Positions 3,072 through 60,146 of a DNA stretch of 64,000 bases are shown here, piece by piece. The stretch is taken from positions 32,001 to 96,000 of the IMG/VR virus record IMGVR_UViG_3300020037_005233; one strand, given 5' to 3'. The first letter of the stretch is position 1, and each line of letters begins with the position of its first letter. Under the pieces are notes generated by a model. The model did no database searches and was not told the DNA's origin. It saw only the letters and a program-made list of their open reading frames with translations. A program made the translations under genes and the position numbers. Origin of the DNA: a virus (lineage: Duplodnaviria > Caudoviricetes).

Positions 3072-3302
3072 TTACTCTGACTCAGCTTCAACACTGCCTT
3101 CTTTTACAACCAGAAGTAGTCCCCATCTTTTTAGGAACTCTCTTGAGTTGTTTTTCACAAATGATTCTTTAAGTGCTGTGACCAATGCTTCAGCTGTCTC
3201 TAACTTAGATACACTGCGGCTTTGCTCGGCAGCCTTCATGAGCTCTGCTTCGAACTCATGTAAGCCATCTATAAGCATCATCGCTTCTTTTACTTCTTTC
3301 AT
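3072..3302 (-). CDS. Hypothetical protein
   Basis: ORF with GAGG SD. Confidence 0.6.
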   Translation of the reverse strand: MKEVKEAMMLIDGLHEFEAELMKAAEQSRSVSKLETAEALVTALKESFVKNNSREFLKRWGLLLVVKEGSVEAESE

Positions 3303-3651
3303 GGGACACCTCTATGTTTCTGACCAGGTTTATAAAGGCATCAAAACTTTTTATATCACACCTTATCTGCCTGTGCTCCAGCAGCCGCTGGTACCAGGGT
3401 AAGGATCTGATGTAGTCTGTTTTGATAACATTTAAGAACTCGGCTCTTAGTTTAAGCGCACTGACAGCGGTAAGCCTGACGTCGATCTCTATTTCTAGGA
3501 TTTCATCGGGCTTATGCATGTACTTGTTGCAGAAGCTCTCTGCGCACAACTTCGCTTGTTCGATGAGAACAAGATCCCTTGTACGGCAAGACACTTCTTC
3601 AATCATGGCGCATGAAATGTTATCAAGAACATCCTCTACATCATGATTCAT
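3256..3651 (-). CDS. Hypothetical protein
   Basis: ORF with GAGGAG SD. Confidence 0.6.
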   Translation of the reverse strand: MNHDVEDVLDNISCAMIEEVSCRTRDLVLIEQAKLCAESFCNKYMHKPDEILEIEIDVRLTAVSALKLRAEFLNVIKTDYIRSLPWYQRLLEHRQIRCDIKSFDAFINLVRNIEVSHERSKRSDDAYRWLT

Positions 3652-3652
3652 A

Positions 3653-3733
3653 TTAACTCCTCATACACAAATAGACATGAACAAGTGAAAAAATTCCTAC
3701 ACTTGTGCCTAAAATTATTATTTCTAAATTCAC
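3653..3733 (-). CDS. 26-aa hydrophobic micropeptide
   Basis: AGGAGG SD, GTG start, single TM-like stretch. Confidence 0.45.
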   Translation of the reverse strand: MNLEIIILGTSVGIFSLVHVYLCMRS

Positions 3734-3750
3734 AACAACCTCCTATAAAA

Positions 3751-3776
3751 GGGGGAGAGCCCGAAGGCCCTCCCCC
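3751..3776 (-). terminator. Rho-independent terminator
   Basis: GC stem with TTCG loop followed by TTTT on the minus strand. Confidence 0.7.
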
Positions 3777-3795
3777 AAGTTAACTAACTAGAGTA

Positions 3796-4188
3796 TTAAG
3801 CGGCTTTCTTAGCATGGGATTTACCCTTGCTAAGTATTTCACTTTTACTCGCCTTACTTGCTATAGCAGCGGTAGCAGCAAACACAATAACAGTGACACC
3901 TGCTTGGAGGAACCTGTCCACCCAAGTAGATACTTTATTGTTCTTAGGCTTAGCTGCTTCAGCTAGCTTTTCTTCTAGAAACGAATAATCAACCTGATTA
4001 AGAGTTCGTTCGATAATGATTTTTCTATCGCTATCGTTGAGTTCTAGGGAGTTTTTTTTGATGTATGATTCTAGCTCATCCGCAGCTTTCTGACGCATAA
4101 TTTCAATGCTTTTGACATCGATCTTAGAGTCAGCTGGTTTAGAATCAACTGCTTCAGACTTCACTTCTTTTACTTGTTCATTACTCAT
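3796..4188 (-). CDS. Hypothetical protein with C-terminal TM helix, downstream of the hammerhead
   Basis: AAGGA SD; hydrophobic segment GVTVIVFAATAAIAS. Confidence 0.7.
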   Translation of the reverse strand: MSNEQVKEVKSEAVDSKPADSKIDVKSIEIMRQKAADELESYIKKNSLELNDSDRKIIIERTLNQVDYSFLEEKLAEAAKPKNNKVSTWVDRFLQAGVTVIVFAATAAIASKASKSEILSKGKSHAKKAA

Positions 4189-4209
4189 ATTGTTTCCTTT
4201 GTTCGTTGT

Positions 4210-4274
4210 TATCCCATTTGCTCATCAGTGCAGGATAGGGGAATACCTGCAGACCCTAACAGGGTTTCGCATAT
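4210..4274 (-). ncRNA. Type II hammerhead ribozyme
   Basis: Minus strand: AUAUGC-GAAA-CCCU guu AGGG-UC/UGCAGG-loop-CCUGCA-CUGAUGA-GCAAAU; complete core and three stems. Confidence 0.9.
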
Positions 4275-4302
4275 TTAAGCTGATCCAAGCAGTACAAATA
4301 GA

Positions 4303-4350
4303 AACCCCTAGATTTAGCTGCCTGTAATAGCGCAACTAAATCTAGGGGTT
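4303..4350. repeat. 15-bp perfect inverted repeat in 5' leader
   Basis: AACCCCTAGATTTAG-N18-CTAAATCTAGGGGTT. Confidence 0.8.
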
Positions 4351-4377
4351 ACTGAGAGATATTATTCTCCTATTAAG

Positions 4378-4406
4378 CTTATACCCGAAAAACATCACTT
4401 TTTGCC
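4378..4406 (-). promoter_or_regulatory. Phage promoter copy 2 (GGCAAA-N17-TATAAG)
   Basis: Consensus match. Confidence 0.8.
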
Positions 4407-4425
4407 ACTTATACACAGACCCTGT

Positions 4426-4965
4426 TTAAGGCCTCATAACTGACATAACGATGCCCCAGATATATACATGACATTCTGTAACGGCTGAAAATCCGTTAGC
4501 CGCTCTTACTTTATAGGCAGGTGTTTTCCTTGCCATGACGATACAGTGCTCTGTGCTAGTATCTGTCATGTCCTCTCCTGCCATGGCCGTAGCCATGTTG
4601 TCTTTCATGAGTGTGGATACTAATACCTCTGTATCAGGATGCCTTCGTAACATCTCAGAAAACAGCTGCGTAAACACACCCATTCCTCTGTAGTTCTCCG
4701 ACACCTCTATAGAATCAAGAGATATCTCTCCTGGCTTTCTGGGGTCTACTCTGTATAAAAGTGCTCCTACACGGTCACCGTTATTGTTGTAGCCCTCGAT
4801 TACGTTGTTTATTTCTACGCCTGTATTGAACACACTAGACTCCAGTCTAAGCATGCCCAGGCCTGGTACGGTTAGGTAAGCACTGCACACAGCAGGCTCT
4901 ACCGCAGAAACAGAAATAGCTGCTGCTATAGCCACACCTATGGCGGCCTTGATTAAAGCTTTCAT
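4426..4965 (-). CDS. GNAT-fold acetyltransferase with signal-like N-terminus
   Basis: IEVSENYRGMGVFTQL acetyl-CoA motif A. Confidence 0.7.
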   Translation of the reverse strand: MKALIKAAIGVAIAAAISVSAVEPAVCSAYLTVPGLGMLRLESSVFNTGVEINNVIEGYNNNGDRVGALLYRVDPRKPGEISLDSIEVSENYRGMGVFTQLFSEMLRRHPDTEVLVSTLMKDNMATAMAGEDMTDTSTEHCIVMARKTPAYKVRAANGFSAVTECHVYIWGIVMSVMRP

Positions 4966-5008
4966 AAGACCTCCGATATTTAAGTTGTTTGGGGATTACT
5001 TTAATAAC

Positions 5009-5044
5009 CGTACTTACTGAGATGGCCACACCTCAGTAAGTACG
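5009..5044. repeat. 13-bp perfect inverted repeat in 5' leader of the GNAT gene
   Basis: CGTACTTACTGAG-N10-CTCAGTAAGTACG. Confidence 0.75.
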
Positions 5045-5101
5045 TAAGGAACCATGCTAGTGTATGCATGGGAGTATAATTGATATTTTTACTCTATTAA
5101 G

Positions 5102-5130
5102 CTTATACCCGAAAAAACGCGGTTTTTGCC
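5102..5130 (-). promoter_or_regulatory. Phage promoter copy 3
   Basis: GGCAAA-N17-TATAAG. Confidence 0.8.
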
Positions 5131-5137
5131 ATGTGGT

Positions 5138-5335
5138 TTAGGCTGGTTTTTTGGGGGTAGGTAGAAACCCAAATTGATTGGGTCTAGGGACATTAGCAGG
5201 GTCAATGTCGGTGTAGCTCTTCTTACCGGCTTTGAGTGCCATGCGTTCCCATGTAGAGGACCTAGGCTTTAGCTCGTTTGCAGCGGGTAACTTCTTTGTC
5301 TGGTTGTAGAAACCCTTAAGGAACTTGGATAACAT
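5138..5335 (-). CDS. Small basic protein with variant tag MLSKFLKGF
   Basis: ATG 11 nt after TGCTATAAT; partial motif. Confidence 0.55.
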   Translation of the reverse strand: MLSKFLKGFYNQTKKLPAANELKPRSSTWERMALKAGKKSYTDIDPANVPRPNQFGFLPTPKKPA

Positions 5336-5400
5336 AGTGGCTGTGATTATAGCACTGACACTTAAAATAAAAAAGGGGCAGCCAGTGGCCACCCCTTTTA

Positions 5401-5679
5401 TCAGTGCTGAAGGTCTTCTTCACACATATCCATAGGGCTTGCTACATATTCCCTGGCTGGTACCACGAACGCCTCTGGAGACCTGTAGGTGCTTAGAGGA
5501 ATCTCTGGGTTGAACCTGATGGTGATGGTTCTGGTCAGGGGCAGCAATATCTCTTGTCCTGGCAAGGTGATCTGCTTAGCCTGCAAAAGCTTTTGGCCTA
5601 GTTGGATCAGTTGTTCTGGATCTGTGATATCTACTATCGTAGACGAGATGGTTGTTGATTTATCTAGTATCTTTTCCAT
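5401..5679 (-). CDS. Hypothetical protein
   Basis: ORF coupled to neighbour. Confidence 0.6.
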   Translation of the reverse strand: MEKILDKSTTISSTIVDITDPEQLIQLGQKLLQAKQITLPGQEILLPLTRTITIRFNPEIPLSTYRSPEAFVVPAREYVASPMDMCEEDLQH

Positions 5680-6009
5680 TTATTTCTTCTCCGTAAATAT
5701 GTAGCTAGTGGCTACGTTCTTAAAATGCTTCACCGCGTTTACATAACCGAGCCCAAACGATGTTCCCTCTGCAATCACAACTATGGGCTGTGAGTTGTTT
5801 GGAAACACAATCTCCTCTGGCACGCCATAGGGCGGGGCTACGTACGAAACAATCTTCTGCCCTGAGGGTGATATAGACGTTTCAAATTGTATTGGCTCTA
5901 TTAGTACTGGCGACGTCGCGTCAGGGTGTTCGTCAGGGCACTCTAGCAGCCCTACATACTTTCCCTGCGGTGTTGATACTATTGCTAGTGTTGATTCTTC
6001 TGGTACCAT
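5680..6009 (-). CDS. Hypothetical protein
   Basis: AAGGAG SD. Confidence 0.65.
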   Translation of the reverse strand: MVPEESTLAIVSTPQGKYVGLLECPDEHPDATSPVLIEPIQFETSISPSGQKIVSYVAPPYGVPEEIVFPNNSQPIVVIAEGTSFGLGYVNAVKHFKNVATSYIFTEKK

Positions 6010-6018
6010 TTTAACTCC

Positions 6019-6597
6019 TTAGTGCATTCCACCTTCGATTACTCTTAGCGCGTGTTGTCTTGCTTGTAGCATCTGCCCTGCTGCAGACGCGGCCCTGTCT
6101 GAGGCTGGGATGAACCGCTCTATTACTTGCTGCATTGAATCCAACCTCCCTCTTTGTCGATCGAGCTCTTCCATCATTACCGACCTGTCCTCAAGCATTT
6201 GGGATCTAGCTGCCTCAAGCACTGAGACGTGTACAAGATCTCTTGTCGCATTTTCACGAATAAATAAGCTTAGGTTTGTTCTAAAGTCTTTACTGACAGT
6301 TGATTTAGATAGTAGTGCCACAACCACCATGTCTTTTTCGGACCACAGGTGCATGTCATTTCTAACTCTGGCTACACCAAACTCTACCCTGTTTTTCTTA
6401 ATAAACTCCTTAGCCTCGCGTTTTGCGAGGCTAAGGAGATCCAACTCATCTCTATGTCTGGTTACTACGGAATATAGTGCTGTTTGTGTTATACCGAGTG
6501 CTTTAGTTAACTGACCAGTAGTACAAAACAACTCCCCTTTCTCATCTTCCATCATCGGCATATAAAGACCCATAAAACTCCAGCGAACTAACTTCAT
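6019..6597 (-). CDS. ORF6N/antirepressor-like DNA-binding protein with coiled coil
   Basis: HTH-like TTGQLTKALGIT; LWSEKDM..VALLSKS..SKDFR pattern. Confidence 0.55.
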   Translation of the reverse strand: MKLVRWSFMGLYMPMMEDEKGELFCTTGQLTKALGITQTALYSVVTRHRDELDLLSLAKREAKEFIKKNRVEFGVARVRNDMHLWSEKDMVVVALLSKSTVSKDFRTNLSLFIRENATRDLVHVSVLEAARSQMLEDRSVMMEELDRQRGRLDSMQQVIERFIPASDRAASAAGQMLQARQHALRVIEGGMH

Positions 6598-6656
6598 AAT
6601 ATATCTCCTTTATTTAACTAAATCCTTAGCGTCTCAAAATGCAACGCTAAGGAAAT

Positions 6657-6845
6657 CTATTTCTTACCCGCAAGCTTAGCCGGATCAAATATCACAACCA
6701 CGGACCCGTCTTGGTTCATCTTCACCAATCTGGAGACTTGCTCAAGCTCTCTGATCCACCTTCTTCTATCGTCTACACTTGTTTTAACCACAGTAGTTTC
6801 ATCGTACGTTCTAGTCTTAAATGTCTCTTCTTTTTGTTCTTGCAT
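6657..6845 (-). CDS. Hypothetical protein
   Basis: AAGGAG SD. Confidence 0.6.
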   Translation of the reverse strand: MQEQKEETFKTRTYDETTVVKTSVDDRRRWIRELEQVSRLVKMNQDGSVVVIFDPAKLAGKK

Positions 6846-6854
6846 AATATCTCC

Positions 6855-8744
6855 TTATTTTGTCCAACAACTAGCTAGGTGCCCCTCTACTTCCATAGTG
6901 ACATACCGTAGCAACTTATTTGCTTCTTCCTTCATGATTTTGCACTGTAAAGCAAACACTGCCTCAGAGTCCGTCTTCTTTATATCGAGCACGATCTCAT
7001 CATACACGCTGTTATACATTCTAGCGTCGTACTTGCGTTGTTTGCACTCCTTCCTGATTCTGTACATTGCGGCTTTGGTCATTTCCGCGTTTACACTTTG
7101 GATGTGGAAGTTTGCTCCTTCTCTACTGATGCCAGCGAGTCTTGCTTTAACCATCTCGTTTACAACACCAGCGATTTCATAGTCACTTAGAGCCGACTCC
7201 CCACACTTTTTCTTCTTACATAGTTCTGCCACAACCTCTATCCTGAGCTTCTCCGGCTGTGGCCTAAACCACCTACGTTTTCTGCCTACAATATTAACAG
7301 CCTCAAACAGTGTGCTTGCCTCTGATTGCTTCGCTTCAAGCCACTCGATACAGGTTTTAAACGTCCTCTTATACCCGTAGTACATATCCTTAGTTTCTTG
7401 TGCAGTTATTTTTACTCCATTACCTACCAGATCCTCATAAAGAGACGTAGCTCCGAGCCCGTAAAAAAGACCGAAGTTTATTGCCTTTGCAGGATCTCTG
7501 AGGTGTTTATTTTCATTCTTTTTAGTAACAGGGACACCAAAGAGCATTGATGCCACGTAACAATGAAAGTCCTCTCCTGAGTTGAATCCACTGACCATCA
7601 GAGGATCCCCACTTAGATCAGCAGCAATCCTTAACTCAGCTCCAGAATAATCAACTGTTCCTAGTAATCGGTCTTCATCGGTGATGAACGCGTTACGATA
7701 CCGTTTTTCTCTGGGTATGTTCAGACAGTTTAGCCCGCCTACTGCAGCAGGCCTTCCGGTCTCTGTACCGTATTGATTAAACCTAAAATGCACACGCCCT
7801 GTAACAGGGTGAATAGCATCTAGATATTGCTGACCATAAGTGCTCAGTCGTTTTTGGACGGCTCTGTAAGCTTGCAACGCCTGCACCACAGGATACTGCT
7901 TGATCTTCCGCTGCGTCTTTTTATTTGTGTCTCTGATCATTTCCCCGTCTGCTTTAACCCCAAGCATCTGCAGGCCGTAGAGCACAACGGGGTTACTGTC
8001 GTAGTTTACAAAAACATCTCCGAACAAGTCACGCCCGTACACATTCTCGAAGTACACATCCAACTGGTTCTTAGCAACTAATGCAGCGGCGCGGTTATCA
8101 TCCATAACAACTTTCCACGCCGAGGCATCAATCTTCTGCCCGTAGTACTCTATATCTGCGAAAGCCTGCACAGCCCTAGATTCTGTAGTCCAGGCCCTGA
8201 GTACTCCCTCACTTCTCATCTTTTTTTGCATCTCATCTATGAGTGGTAGCAGTGCTTTGGCATCATTAGCCGCGTAATCAAGCTGTGCTTTGCTAAAGTC
8301 TCCCTTATGCCCTATGAATGATTTCTGAAGGGTTTTATCCACGTCAGTGCCTAGGTATTTTTTGCTTACAGCATCTAAGCCGTAACCTTCAAACTGTGTA
8401 CCCGCAGTGAGTGTATACTCTGCAAGCATGGTATCGAAGATGCCTTCGATATCACAACCAGCAGTTCCTTTAACCATCTTGTAGTCAAACCCTCCGTTGT
8501 GGAGTGCTTTCTTAATGAGCTCGTTCTCTAGCGTAGGCGCCAGTGCCTTAAGTACATTCACGTCTCTGCAATCAAGGACGTAAACGTGACTGTCTGTGGC
8601 TAGGGATGCCAAGACAACTTTATCTTTATGTGGGTCAAGTCCTGTGGTTTCAGTGTCGAAGCTTAGACGAGTAGCACTGCTCATTAGCTCGCTATTTAGC
8701 TGCTCCGCCTGCGACGGTGTTGTTATGTATTTGTATTCAGTCAT
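6855..8744 (-). CDS. polA: DNA polymerase family A (3'-5' exonuclease + polymerase)
   Basis: DTETTG ExoI, HNGGFD ExoII, YAAND ExoIII, DYSGAELR motif A, KAINFGLFYG motif B, VYDEIV motif C. Confidence 0.95.
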   Translation of the reverse strand: MTEYKYITTPSQAEQLNSELMSSATRLSFDTETTGLDPHKDKVVLASLATDSHVYVLDCRDVNVLKALAPTLENELIKKALHNGGFDYKMVKGTAGCDIEGIFDTMLAEYTLTAGTQFEGYGLDAVSKKYLGTDVDKTLQKSFIGHKGDFSKAQLDYAANDAKALLPLIDEMQKKMRSEGVLRAWTTESRAVQAFADIEYYGQKIDASAWKVVMDDNRAAALVAKNQLDVYFENVYGRDLFGDVFVNYDSNPVVLYGLQMLGVKADGEMIRDTNKKTQRKIKQYPVVQALQAYRAVQKRLSTYGQQYLDAIHPVTGRVHFRFNQYGTETGRPAAVGGLNCLNIPREKRYRNAFITDEDRLLGTVDYSGAELRIAADLSGDPLMVSGFNSGEDFHCYVASMLFGVPVTKKNENKHLRDPAKAINFGLFYGLGATSLYEDLVGNGVKITAQETKDMYYGYKRTFKTCIEWLEAKQSEASTLFEAVNIVGRKRRWFRPQPEKLRIEVVAELCKKKKCGESALSDYEIAGVVNEMVKARLAGISREGANFHIQSVNAEMTKAAMYRIRKECKQRKYDARMYNSVYDEIVLDIKKTDSEAVFALQCKIMKEEANKLLRYVTMEVEGHLASCWTK

Positions 8745-8763: not shown

Positions 8764-8792
8764 CTTATAACCGAACTAGAGTGAATTTTTCC
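8764..8792 (-). promoter_or_regulatory. Phage promoter copy 4 (upstream of polA)
   Basis: GGAAAA-N17-TATAAG. Confidence 0.75.
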
Positions 8793-13754: not shown

Positions 13755-15682
13755 TGGAAAAACGGGCAGTATTCGGTGAGAACGTTGGTAAGGAACGGGA
13801 CGTCTTCTTTATAAAAGAAGATCGTAACTACCTTATTAAGCGTGCTAGCCAGTACCACCCAGAAATCCAAAAATATATCGACAATGCCACACCTATTAAG
13901 GATCTGGTGCAGGTGCTTATCACGGCGCTAGGTGCTTACGAGCAGTGGGGCATTAATGCAAATGCCGATGCTTTTCCAGAGGCTGCTTTGTCGCACAAAG
14001 GCGACGACTTTGGTTACGAGACATTCAAAACAAACGCCAACTATTTCTTACATCATGTTAATAAGGATCCTTCCCTTGCCAAAGGCAAGGTCCTGCATAC
14101 GGTATGGAACCAAAAGGCAAAGCGTGTAGAACTTGTTATCGGCATCGATGTTAATCTTGACCCTGAAGGCGTGAGCTCTGTAGCTAACGGCGAAGCACTT
14201 GCATTCAGCATGGGCTCCAGACTTCCTTACGATGTTTGTAGCATCTGTGGCAATAAGGCTAAGACACGCGCCGAGTACTGTGATCATCTGAAGTATCAGC
14301 TAAGACAGATGGACCCTGTTACAGGCAAATTAGTCTACGCCAACAACACGCTCCCTAAATTTTTTGATATCAGCCGCGTCCTTATCCCTGCCGATAAGAC
14401 TGCTTATATGTGGACCAAGGTAGCCGCTGCCGCAGGTGATAACCCTTTTGCAAAGCTTGGCTCCGCTGAGTTAGCGGCACTCCCACCAGGCAAGATCAAC
14501 GACCTCTCGTACCTAAGGAAGATCGCTACCGATCGTGAAGCTCTCAATAAAGAAGCTGTTAAGAAATCCGCTGCCGTCAGTAAGTCAGCGTACATAAAAA
14601 AGCAGATTCCGGTACAGGTACCAGCTCCTAAAGTAGTCTGTAAATTAGAAGAAATTATCCCCATCGCTAAGTTAGCTTTGGAGGCTAATTCCCCTAACAT
14701 TGATATAAATGTGTTTCGTGGCCACTCGCTTCCAGAGGCTATGGTCACGCTTCTTGCCATGGGTATAGTCCCTAAGCGCGATGAGATGACGGGAATGCAC
14801 GAGCTATTTGTAGCTCATAAGCCATCCGTGCTGGATAATTTGACTACAGGCATCGATAATTTTAGTAGAAAACTAGCGGATAAGTTAGTTCCTTATGTCG
14901 AGGAAAGAAGTTTTAGCAAGCCTATTTTGTTGAAAAGGTTGATGAAAACGGCAGCTCTTCCTTCTACTAAGCTTCGTGCGCTGGTAAACCCTTCTAGTAG
15001 TAAACTAGACAAGTTAGCAGAAGGCTCCACTGCTCATGCAGGTTTAGCCGCAGCGATCGCGGCCGCCCTTTACGCGATGATGTCCGGCGGGGCTGAGAAG
15101 AGATCAGCTGGTATGGGTAGGCTTATCGCAGACCATCCCTTCATCGCCATGGCACTAGGTGCTGGCATGATTAAAACACTAAGAAACTTAAATCCTAGCC
15201 GCCAAGTAGAATCTGGTCAGATTACTCTTGCTGATCCAACTCGTGGCCTCTATAATAATGACTGGCAGAGTCGGTTTAGAGATCTTCAAACACGACCTGT
15301 CGCGGTTATAAAAACCGGGTCTGTGTCAGTCACTACTGCAAGCCAACTTATCGATGGAATGTCGTTGCTGTTTCAGCATGCAAACCTAAATAAACTGGCG
15401 CAATCACAGCACCCTGTTACCGATTTTATTTTACAAAATCCAAGCAAATTTGAGTTAGGACTTATTGGCGCCTACGCCGACGGTCAGAATGTGTCTGAGA
15501 AAATCGGATCCATGATGGCTTCTGCTAGTCGTTTGATTAAGTCCGCGTCCTTAGGTAATCTCGAATTTCTTGAGATGTTGCCAGACACCGACAGGGACGT
15601 TGTATGGGATCTGGCTATTATTAACGCGGCTGATGAAATCAATCGCAAAATTGTCGAGGGAGGCTCTTATGGCAACTCTTAA
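13754..15682 (+). CDS. Prohead maturation protease with Zn ribbon and C-terminal extension
   Basis: FLHH, FSMG (catalytic Ser), CSICGN..CDHL, FFDISRV..PAD. Confidence 0.75.
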   Translation: MEKRAVFGENVGKERDVFFIKEDRNYLIKRASQYHPEIQKYIDNATPIKDLVQVLITALGAYEQWGINANADAFPEAALSHKGDDFGYETFKTNANYFLHHVNKDPSLAKGKVLHTVWNQKAKRVELVIGIDVNLDPEGVSSVANGEALAFSMGSRLPYDVCSICGNKAKTRAEYCDHLKYQLRQMDPVTGKLVYANNTLPKFFDISRVLIPADKTAYMWTKVAAAAGDNPFAKLGSAELAALPPGKINDLSYLRKIATDREALNKEAVKKSAAVSKSAYIKKQIPVQVPAPKVVCKLEEIIPIAKLALEANSPNIDINVFRGHSLPEAMVTLLAMGIVPKRDEMTGMHELFVAHKPSVLDNLTTGIDNFSRKLADKLVPYVEERSFSKPILLKRLMKTAALPSTKLRALVNPSSSKLDKLAEGSTAHAGLAAAIAAALYAMMSGGAEKRSAGMGRLIADHPFIAMALGAGMIKTLRNLNPSRQVESGQITLADPTRGLYNNDWQSRFRDLQTRPVAVIKTGSVSVTTASQLIDGMSLLFQHANLNKLAQSQHPVTDFILQNPSKFELGLIGAYADGQNVSEKIGSMMASASRLIKSASLGNLEFLEMLPDTDRDVVWDLAIINAADEINRKIVEGGSYGNS

Positions 15683-41350: not shown

Positions 41351-41425
41351 TGGCTGGCGATCCAGGGATCGAACCTGGGACACCTCGGTTAACAGCCGAG
41401 TGCTATACCTCTTAGCTAATCGCCA
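41351..41425 (-). tRNA. tRNA-Asn (GTT) with encoded CCA
   Basis: TGGCGAT/ATCGCCA acceptor, CTCGG-CTGTTAA-CCGAG anticodon arm, CCAGG-TTCGATC-CCTGG T arm. Confidence 0.95.
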
Positions 41426-46891: not shown

Positions 46892-46920
46892 CTTATACCT
46901 GAATAATTGATTAATTTTCC
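46892..46920 (-). promoter_or_regulatory. Phage promoter copy 8
   Basis: GGAAAA-N17-TATAAG. Confidence 0.7.
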
Positions 46921-60117: not shown

Positions 60118-60146
60118 CTTATGCCCGAAATAAATCATATTTTTCC
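60118..60146 (-). promoter_or_regulatory. Phage promoter copy 9
   Basis: GGAAAA-N17-CATAAG with TTTCGGG before the -10. Confidence 0.65.

Follow-up and report, generated by a model that had tools for sequence, protein, structure and literature searches.

The minus strand of an uncultured phage carries, at positions 4274-4210, what its sequence identifies as a genuine and complete type II hammerhead ribozyme, for which self-cleavage is predicted. The window, the whole stretch of DNA analysed, is 64,000 nucleotides long and corresponds to bases 32001-96000 of a 113-kb IMG/VR virus contig. The hammerhead lies within a long leader of about 180 nt in front of ORF130, a gene for an orphan protein. 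It probably trims the leader or read-through RNA, and the predicted cleavage would give the ORF130 mRNA a defined, insulated and likely nuclease-resistant 5′ end.

Structure of the ribozyme

A type II hammerhead in a 5′ leader on the minus strand had been proposed in an initial annotation of this DNA, and its core, stems and coordinates are all present (Table 1). The order of elements is a stem II strand, GAAA, the stem III hairpin, the UC cut site, the stem I hairpin, CUGAUGA, the other stem II strand and the tail GGGA. Three helices are arranged around the core, and stem II is closed by the pair G10.1-C11.1. Loops close stems I and III whereas stem II is open, which is the type II topology. 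The invariant core is complete, with C3 U4 G5 A6 N7 G8 A9, G12 A13 A14, the pair A15.1-U16.1 and H17.

CUGAUGA occupies 4228-4222 of the minus strand and is followed by GCAAAU (4221-4216), which faces the 3′ strand of stem II, AUAUGC (4274-4269). The two strands form three contiguous base pairs, UGC/GCA, comprising G4221-C4269 (the closing pair), C4220-G4270 and A4219-U4271. Stem II extends to six pairs if one A.A mismatch is tolerated. GAAA at 4268-4265 represents G12-A14 (GAA, 4268-4266) plus A15.1. In stem III, ACCCU (4265-4261) pairs with AGGGU (4257-4253), including A15.1 (A4265) with U16.1 (U4253). Stem I is formed by UGCAGG (4251-4246) and CCUGCA (4234-4229) and closed by the 11-nt loop UAUUCCCCUAU. 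Stems I and III are retained in the thermodynamic minimum free energy (MFE) fold of a 76-nt region. Core numbering agrees with the cut between 4252 and 4251 given in the annotation as the predicted site. Stem I begins with U4251, which would carry the new 5′-OH.

Table 1. Features of the hammerhead locus and its surroundings; positions refer to the window.
Feature	Position	Strand	Basis or details
Type II hammerhead ribozyme	4212..4274	-	Sequence reading, RF02276 match 4272-4212, descriptor match, 0/3000 shuffles
Stem III hairpin, 5 bp including A15.1-U16.1, loop GUU	4253..4265	-	Sequence reading, thermodynamic fold
Predicted self-cleavage site, 3′ of C17 (4252)	4251..4252	-	Hammerhead core numbering applied to the sequence
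Stem I hairpin, 6 bp, 11-nt loop	4229..4251	-	Sequence reading; stem kept in MFE and centroid folds
Tail GGGA, candidate 4-bp pseudoknot partner of loop I UCCC (4242-4239)	4212..4215	-	Complementarity
Ribosome-binding site AAGGA, 6 nt before ATG	4195..4199	-	Sequence reading
ORF130, orphan 130-aa protein	3796..4188	-	One hydrophobic helix near the C-terminus, basic tail
Strong intrinsic terminator closing the ORF130 unit	3751..3776	-	11 pairs, 9 G-C, then U run
Long near-perfect hairpin, about 19-21 bp, about -33 kcal/mol, then U-rich tail UUUCUAUUUG	4303..4350	-	Folding versus shuffles
Promoter-like motif copy 2: TGGCAAAAA, 15-nt spacer, TATAAG	4378..4407	-	Motif recurrence in genome
GNAT-family acetyltransferase gene, upstream	4426..4965	-	PF00583, 23.9 bits versus cut-off 20.7
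Promoter-like motif copies in the window	4378-4407, 5102-5131, 690-700, 8764-8774, 36143, 46892-46902, 60118-60128	-	

Statistical and database support

The motif is more than a chance match. Our type II descriptor, which combines the core with the A15.1-U16.1 pair, H17 and three stems, found exactly one site in the window. With the observed stem lengths, none of 3000 shuffled windows contained a match, against one in the real window; with loose stem limits, matches occurred in 3 of 1000 dinucleotide-preserving shuffles. The hammerhead is the only candidate across the whole 113-kb contig.

The comparison with the Rfam hammerhead models, put forward in the annotation as a check, gave a full-length match, but one below the gathering cut-off. 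RF02276 (Hammerhead_II) aligns to 4272-4212 over model positions 1-66 of 66 with 32.5 bits. This is 4.5 bits under the gathering cut-off of 37 bits, which is an operational threshold and not a structural feature. The expectation value is 4.9e-5 in a local search of 301 nt. When the complete 64-kb window is searched with all 4227 Rfam families, it is 0.01, and the hammerhead is the sole match besides a tRNA. Due to the cut-off, the hammerhead is absent from a default Rfam scan, which reports only the tRNA. The window encodes a phage tRNA-Asn (anticodon GTT; 41351-41425, minus strand; 65 bits in Rfam), confirmed by ARAGORN.

Three other copies of the locus were obtained from JGI metagenomes via contigs with exact protein matches, and they are 100% identical across the whole leader. 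Protein searches with ORF130 or the GNAT protein yielded no diverged relatives. The DNA polymerase did not lead to a diverged locus either, its best match being 32% identical and not syntenic. A hammerhead pattern of fixed lengths retrieved three unrelated high-GC hammerheads from viral contigs and mostly a conserved coding sequence from metagenomes; neither search revealed a relative. With identical copies only and no diverged relatives, the window copy has no covariation support.

Comparison with other phage type II hammerheads

In viral contigs, DNA pattern scans detected hammerheads with this stem III or this stem I at 34 and more than 116 loci, and type II hammerheads are carried by more than 150 phage loci. 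In those loci, the descriptor identified 195 type II copies, 138-139 of them unique. Since the set was selected by partial identity to the window copy and contains many related gut-phage sequences, the figures are context and not independent proof: stem I has 6 bp in 123 of the 195 copies and the contiguous stem II has 3 bp in 139 of the 195, both as in the window copy, and the next ORF starts at a distance of 10-40 nt in 109 of the 139 unique copies (about 80%), with 30 nt in the window copy. For 13 clear copies in seven loci, RF02276 scores ranged from 29.9 to 44.8 bits, and 8 of the 13 were below 37 bits (29.9-35.6). A score below the cut-off is thus usual for the phage type II population. 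The default Rfam cut-off under-calls phage hammerheads: it misses these eight clear examples plus the window copy.

The type II ribozymes of the comparison set are compact, approximately 60 nt, and have variable upstream flanks. In a weak test, there was no sign of a larger conserved RNA cassette around the window copy, whose flanks had no relatives elsewhere in the viral contigs searched. One viral contig, L054, has five type II hammerhead matches within 4.3 kb (3104-7372). High-GC phage type II hammerheads on L156, L157, L158, L166 and L177 have a GC-rich hairpin, GGCCTGCC-GAAA-GGCGGGCC, about 5-10 nt upstream. Their order of hairpin and hammerhead echoes the window locus, but the U tail is missing.

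The annotation further suggested a pseudoknot between loop I and the downstream GGGA. The complementarity of 4 bp exists. It is not significant, as a 4-bp match in the allowed zone is expected by chance in approximately 31% of shuffled tails (p about 0.3), and it starts further from the core than in the comparison ribozymes. The candidate begins 6 nt after CUGAUGA; of the comparison ribozymes, 92 have a pseudoknot of 4 bp or longer, and in every one of these the distance is 2-5 nt, nearly always 3-5. For the contact to follow directly after stem II, this stem has to be read as 6 bp including the A.A mismatch, an arrangement that is geometrically plausible. The pseudoknot was dropped as positive evidence for the hammerhead, being neither significant nor in the usual register. 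Some phage type II hammerheads of the comparison set have no pseudoknot at all. In most, though not all, known type II members, loop I forms a pseudoknot of at least 4 bp with the nucleotides immediately 3′ of stem II; the cleavage rate drops by orders of magnitude upon small changes or insertions around this contact (PMC3088659). In view of this sensitivity and of the weak and displaced contact, the cleavage speed of the window copy is uncertain.

These observations bear on the question of whether the hammerhead-shaped sequence is inactive or feebly active, as a decaying copy or a rare chance match without a role in expression. The score below the Rfam cut-off, the single copy in the phage, the lack of covariation, a weak and off-register tertiary contact and a stem II that is weak past 3 bp are consistent with inactivity, and hammerhead-like sequences that fail to cleave have been listed (PMC3088659). 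However, every invariant core position is intact, the shuffles do not reproduce the motif, and many clear phage copies score as low or, in some cases, lack any pseudoknot. The setting, on the coding strand, intergenic and 30 nt before an ORF with a ribosome-binding site, is typical of phage type II hammerheads. We consider an inactive copy unlikely.

Genomic setting

Nearby genes are phage-like, among them those for a collagen-like tail fibre and a family A DNA polymerase; the genes around the hammerhead are all located on the minus strand. The polymerase (window 6855-8744, minus strand) has a 3′-5′ exonuclease domain and is less than 30% identical to any deposited phage; the aforementioned best match with 32% identity is from a viral contig. 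The phage belongs to an unsampled lineage.

The hammerhead is intergenic, with the GNAT acetyltransferase gene upstream and ORF130 downstream. ORF130 could not be assigned to a Pfam or PHROG family, a protein atlas search was uninformative, and no homologue was present among 5.8 billion proteins. A membrane-anchored product, as the annotation has it, is plausible because of the single predicted hydrophobic helix. The ORF130 start codon (4188-4186) is on the same strand as the hammerhead, 30 nt after stem II and preceded by a ribosome-binding site. Its distance from the predicted cut is 63 nt, close to the 60 nt noted before. Promoter motif, hairpin, single ribozyme, ribosome-binding site, small gene and terminator form a compact unit.

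Promoter-like motif and upstream hairpin

The promoter-like motif has approximately nine copies in the contig, all on the coding strand and most directly before genes. The consensus is TGGmAAAA, about 12-13 nt, then TTTCGGGTATAAG. Further copies are located outside the window at contig positions 15506 and 16523. At several copies, a ribosome-binding site and an ATG follow 15-25 nt after TATAAG. Copy 2 and copy 1 (5131-5102, before the GNAT gene) share 23 identical bases and, unlike the others, precede long structured leaders. The -10-like hexamer of copy 2 (4383-4378) is 126 nt before the cut, in line with the distance of about 120 nt in the annotation. An AGGAG right after copy 2 (window 4367-4371, minus strand) is at the position of the ribosome-binding site of other copies, and no start codon follows. 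The stretch of hairpin, ribozyme and ribosome-binding site may therefore be an insertion into a once-short leader. The GNAT leader, starting from copy 1, has a near-perfect 16-bp hairpin (window 5005-5044, minus strand) and a smaller one at 5069-5050. As a whole, it folds far better than shuffles (z -5.1); it has no ribozyme.

The long hairpin that was noticed upstream of the ribozyme is indeed present at 4350-4303. Its folding has a z-score of -8.3 (0 of 200 shuffles), and it is identical in the three metagenome copies. It resembles an intrinsic terminator of the upstream GNAT gene, albeit a leaky one, and the hammerhead may consequently act mainly on read-through transcripts. The hammerhead RNA could also come as read-through from the GNAT gene. 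Located between promoter motif and ribozyme, the hairpin may halt most transcripts before the ribozyme. A recurrent pair of terminator and hammerhead was rejected as a general rule: among 134 phage type II hammerheads, just 2 have a terminator-like, U-tailed hairpin within the preceding 110 nt. Nor is there a clear enrichment of long stems upstream (28 versus 18 in a control region).

A second module of promoter motif and hairpin is located outside the window, approximately 16.5 kb before its start (contig 15462-15506, minus strand). Its stem is unrelated to that of the hairpin at 4350-4303; the loop GCUAUUAC(N)G is the same, a U5 tail is present, and there is no ribozyme. The next 300 nt or so contain no ORF of at least 40 codons. 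The module has two members in the phage and no copies in the other viral contigs searched. The second module may represent a family of small phage RNAs or attenuators.

Two readings assign the hairpin a larger role. In one, the repeated promoter drives a hairpin with the conserved loop, either a protein-controlled terminator or a small regulatory RNA, and the hammerhead separates this hairpin from the mRNA. One transcription unit would then provide a stable small RNA and an insulated message. We regard such a combined leader device as quite improbable. In the other, the upstream piece is the main product: a regulatory RNA of approximately 120 nt, with promoter copy 2, the long hairpin and stem III, whose 3′ end is matured by self-cleavage and protected by hairpins and the cyclic phosphate. 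The exceptional stability of the hairpin is in favour of this, as is the second module with its U tail and the ORF-free stretch behind it; the same loop on a different stem suggests that the hairpin RNA itself is under selection. Against it, the module exists in only two copies, of which the second has no ribozyme, and other viral contigs have none. Upstream of phage hammerheads, U-tailed stems are rare and long ones not clearly enriched, as the above counts reveal, and a U-tailed hairpin is more simply explained as the terminator of the GNAT gene. A regulatory RNA as main product is very unlikely.

Proposed fate of the cleavage products

Trimming of the leader, the preferred reading, may proceed as follows. 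Transcripts would originate from the promoter-like motif (4407-4378) or from read-through of the hairpin (4350-4303). On reaching the ribozyme, the transcript would fold into the three-way junction and cut itself after C4252. The upstream product would carry the long hairpin and end in stem III plus one base, with a 2′,3′-cyclic phosphate. The ORF130 mRNA would have a 5′-OH flush on stem I, followed by an A-rich leader predicted to be unstructured and then by the ribosome-binding site and ATG. As the 5′-OH would be on U4251, the first paired base of stem I, the message would begin with a flush hairpin. Due to the type II topology, both new ends would be closed hairpins. The cleaved pieces would be connected by no more than the 3 bp of stem II and perhaps the 4-bp pseudoknot, and should separate at once. 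The short stem III with its 3-nt loop counts against this explanation.

The remaining leader after cleavage is predicted to be unstructured (z +1.65; 194 of 200 shuffles fold at least as well), and this predicts an accessible ribosome-binding site and AUG. A cleavage-activated start codon was considered and rejected. The MFE structure of the leader pairs 4291-4276 with 4187-4171, but this duplex is not better than in shuffles (p = 0.10). Start-codon masking is not a general trend across 137 phage hammerheads (p = 0.16).

In bacterial mRNA decay, RNase E enters poorly at a paired 5′ end that lacks a monophosphate, and 3′ exonucleases are impeded by a 3′-terminal hairpin with a cyclic phosphate. 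Relative protection is thus expected for both products. From the hammerhead chemistry, a stabilised 5′-OH mRNA and a released hairpin RNA can reasonably be inferred, in agreement with the annotation. The ORF130 message would become independent of its origin, be it promoter copy 2 or a promoter further upstream. The outcome for its stability depends on the host.

Cleavage may instead lower ORF130 expression. The 5′-OH product would be degraded in hosts with RNase J, limiting the production of a possibly toxic membrane protein from read-through. Collins and co-workers reportedly observed in 2007 that the 5′-OH product of the glmS ribozyme is degraded in RNase J hosts, and the 5′-OH chemistry is the same here. 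The predicted membrane helix of ORF130, and its bracketing by an own promoter motif and terminators, fit this proposal. However, a 6-bp hairpin with a flush 5′ end should be an obstacle to 5′ exonucleases and 5′-end-dependent RNase E. Hundreds of phage genes have such ribozymes directly before the ribosome-binding site, which fits maturation better than destruction. We regard lowered expression as very unlikely, too. The type II layout, predicted to leave a closed hairpin at either new RNA end, offers a simple and testable reason why this permutation is favoured between phage genes.

Comparison with known systems

The type II class was described in 2011, together with its pseudoknot and the observation that copies are often situated among genes of prophages and phages (Perreault et al. 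2011, PMC3088659). Bacteria and prophages commonly carry type II hammerheads with a pseudoknot between loop I and the tail, and these cleave both in vitro and in E. coli (PMC3088659). The window copy shares with these ribozymes (PMC3088659; RF02276, clan CL00010) the core, the 6-bp stem I, a possible pseudoknot of loop I and 3′ tail, and the intergenic location on the coding strand. It differs in an unusually short stem III with a triloop, a score 4.5 bits under the cut-off and a 4-bp pseudoknot candidate that begins 6 nt beyond the core. The phage has a single copy, whereas arrays of several ribozymes flanking genes are known elsewhere. The window element is one more well-formed type II hammerhead among many known in phages, ordinary and unsurprising to specialists.

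In vivo cleavage was detected by cyPhyRNA-seq in 2021 for three type II hammerheads of Desulfovibrio vulgaris that are located near phage-like genes (PMC8782182). They are of the same type as the window copy, are likewise near hypothetical or phage-like genes and have the same expected 2′,3′-cyclic phosphate and 5′-OH ends. They are experimentally validated, whereas cleavage of the window copy is predicted, and the sequences are unrelated outside the core. The function of bacterial and phage hammerheads is still an open question, with polycistronic mRNA processing as a suggested, unproven role (PMC6765202). The trimming proposed for the window copy would agree with such a processing role (PMC6765202, PMC3088659). 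A single ribozyme in a compact unit is a tidy test case for this function.

The predicted outcome resembles three other systems. RiboJ, reported by Lou and co-workers in 2012, is said to be an engineered insulator made of a satellite-RNA hammerhead plus an added hairpin. In both, a hammerhead between promoter and ribosome-binding site removes a variable leader and leaves a defined, hairpin-capped 5′ end, which is a prediction for the window element. The window element, in contrast, is natural and belongs to type II, and stem I itself would serve as the hairpin at its new 5′ end. The early genes of phage T7 are separated by RNase III processing sites, long double-stranded sites that are cut by a host protein enzyme. 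There, as predicted here, cutting of an intergenic transcript leaves hairpin ends and uncouples neighbouring messages; the window RNA would cut itself, and the end chemistry is different. The glmS ribozyme of Gram-positive 5′ leaders is also a self-cleaving leader RNA whose 5′-OH product decides the fate of the mRNA. It has a different fold, depends on a metabolite and ends in degradation, whereas no ligand-binding element is evident in the window copy.
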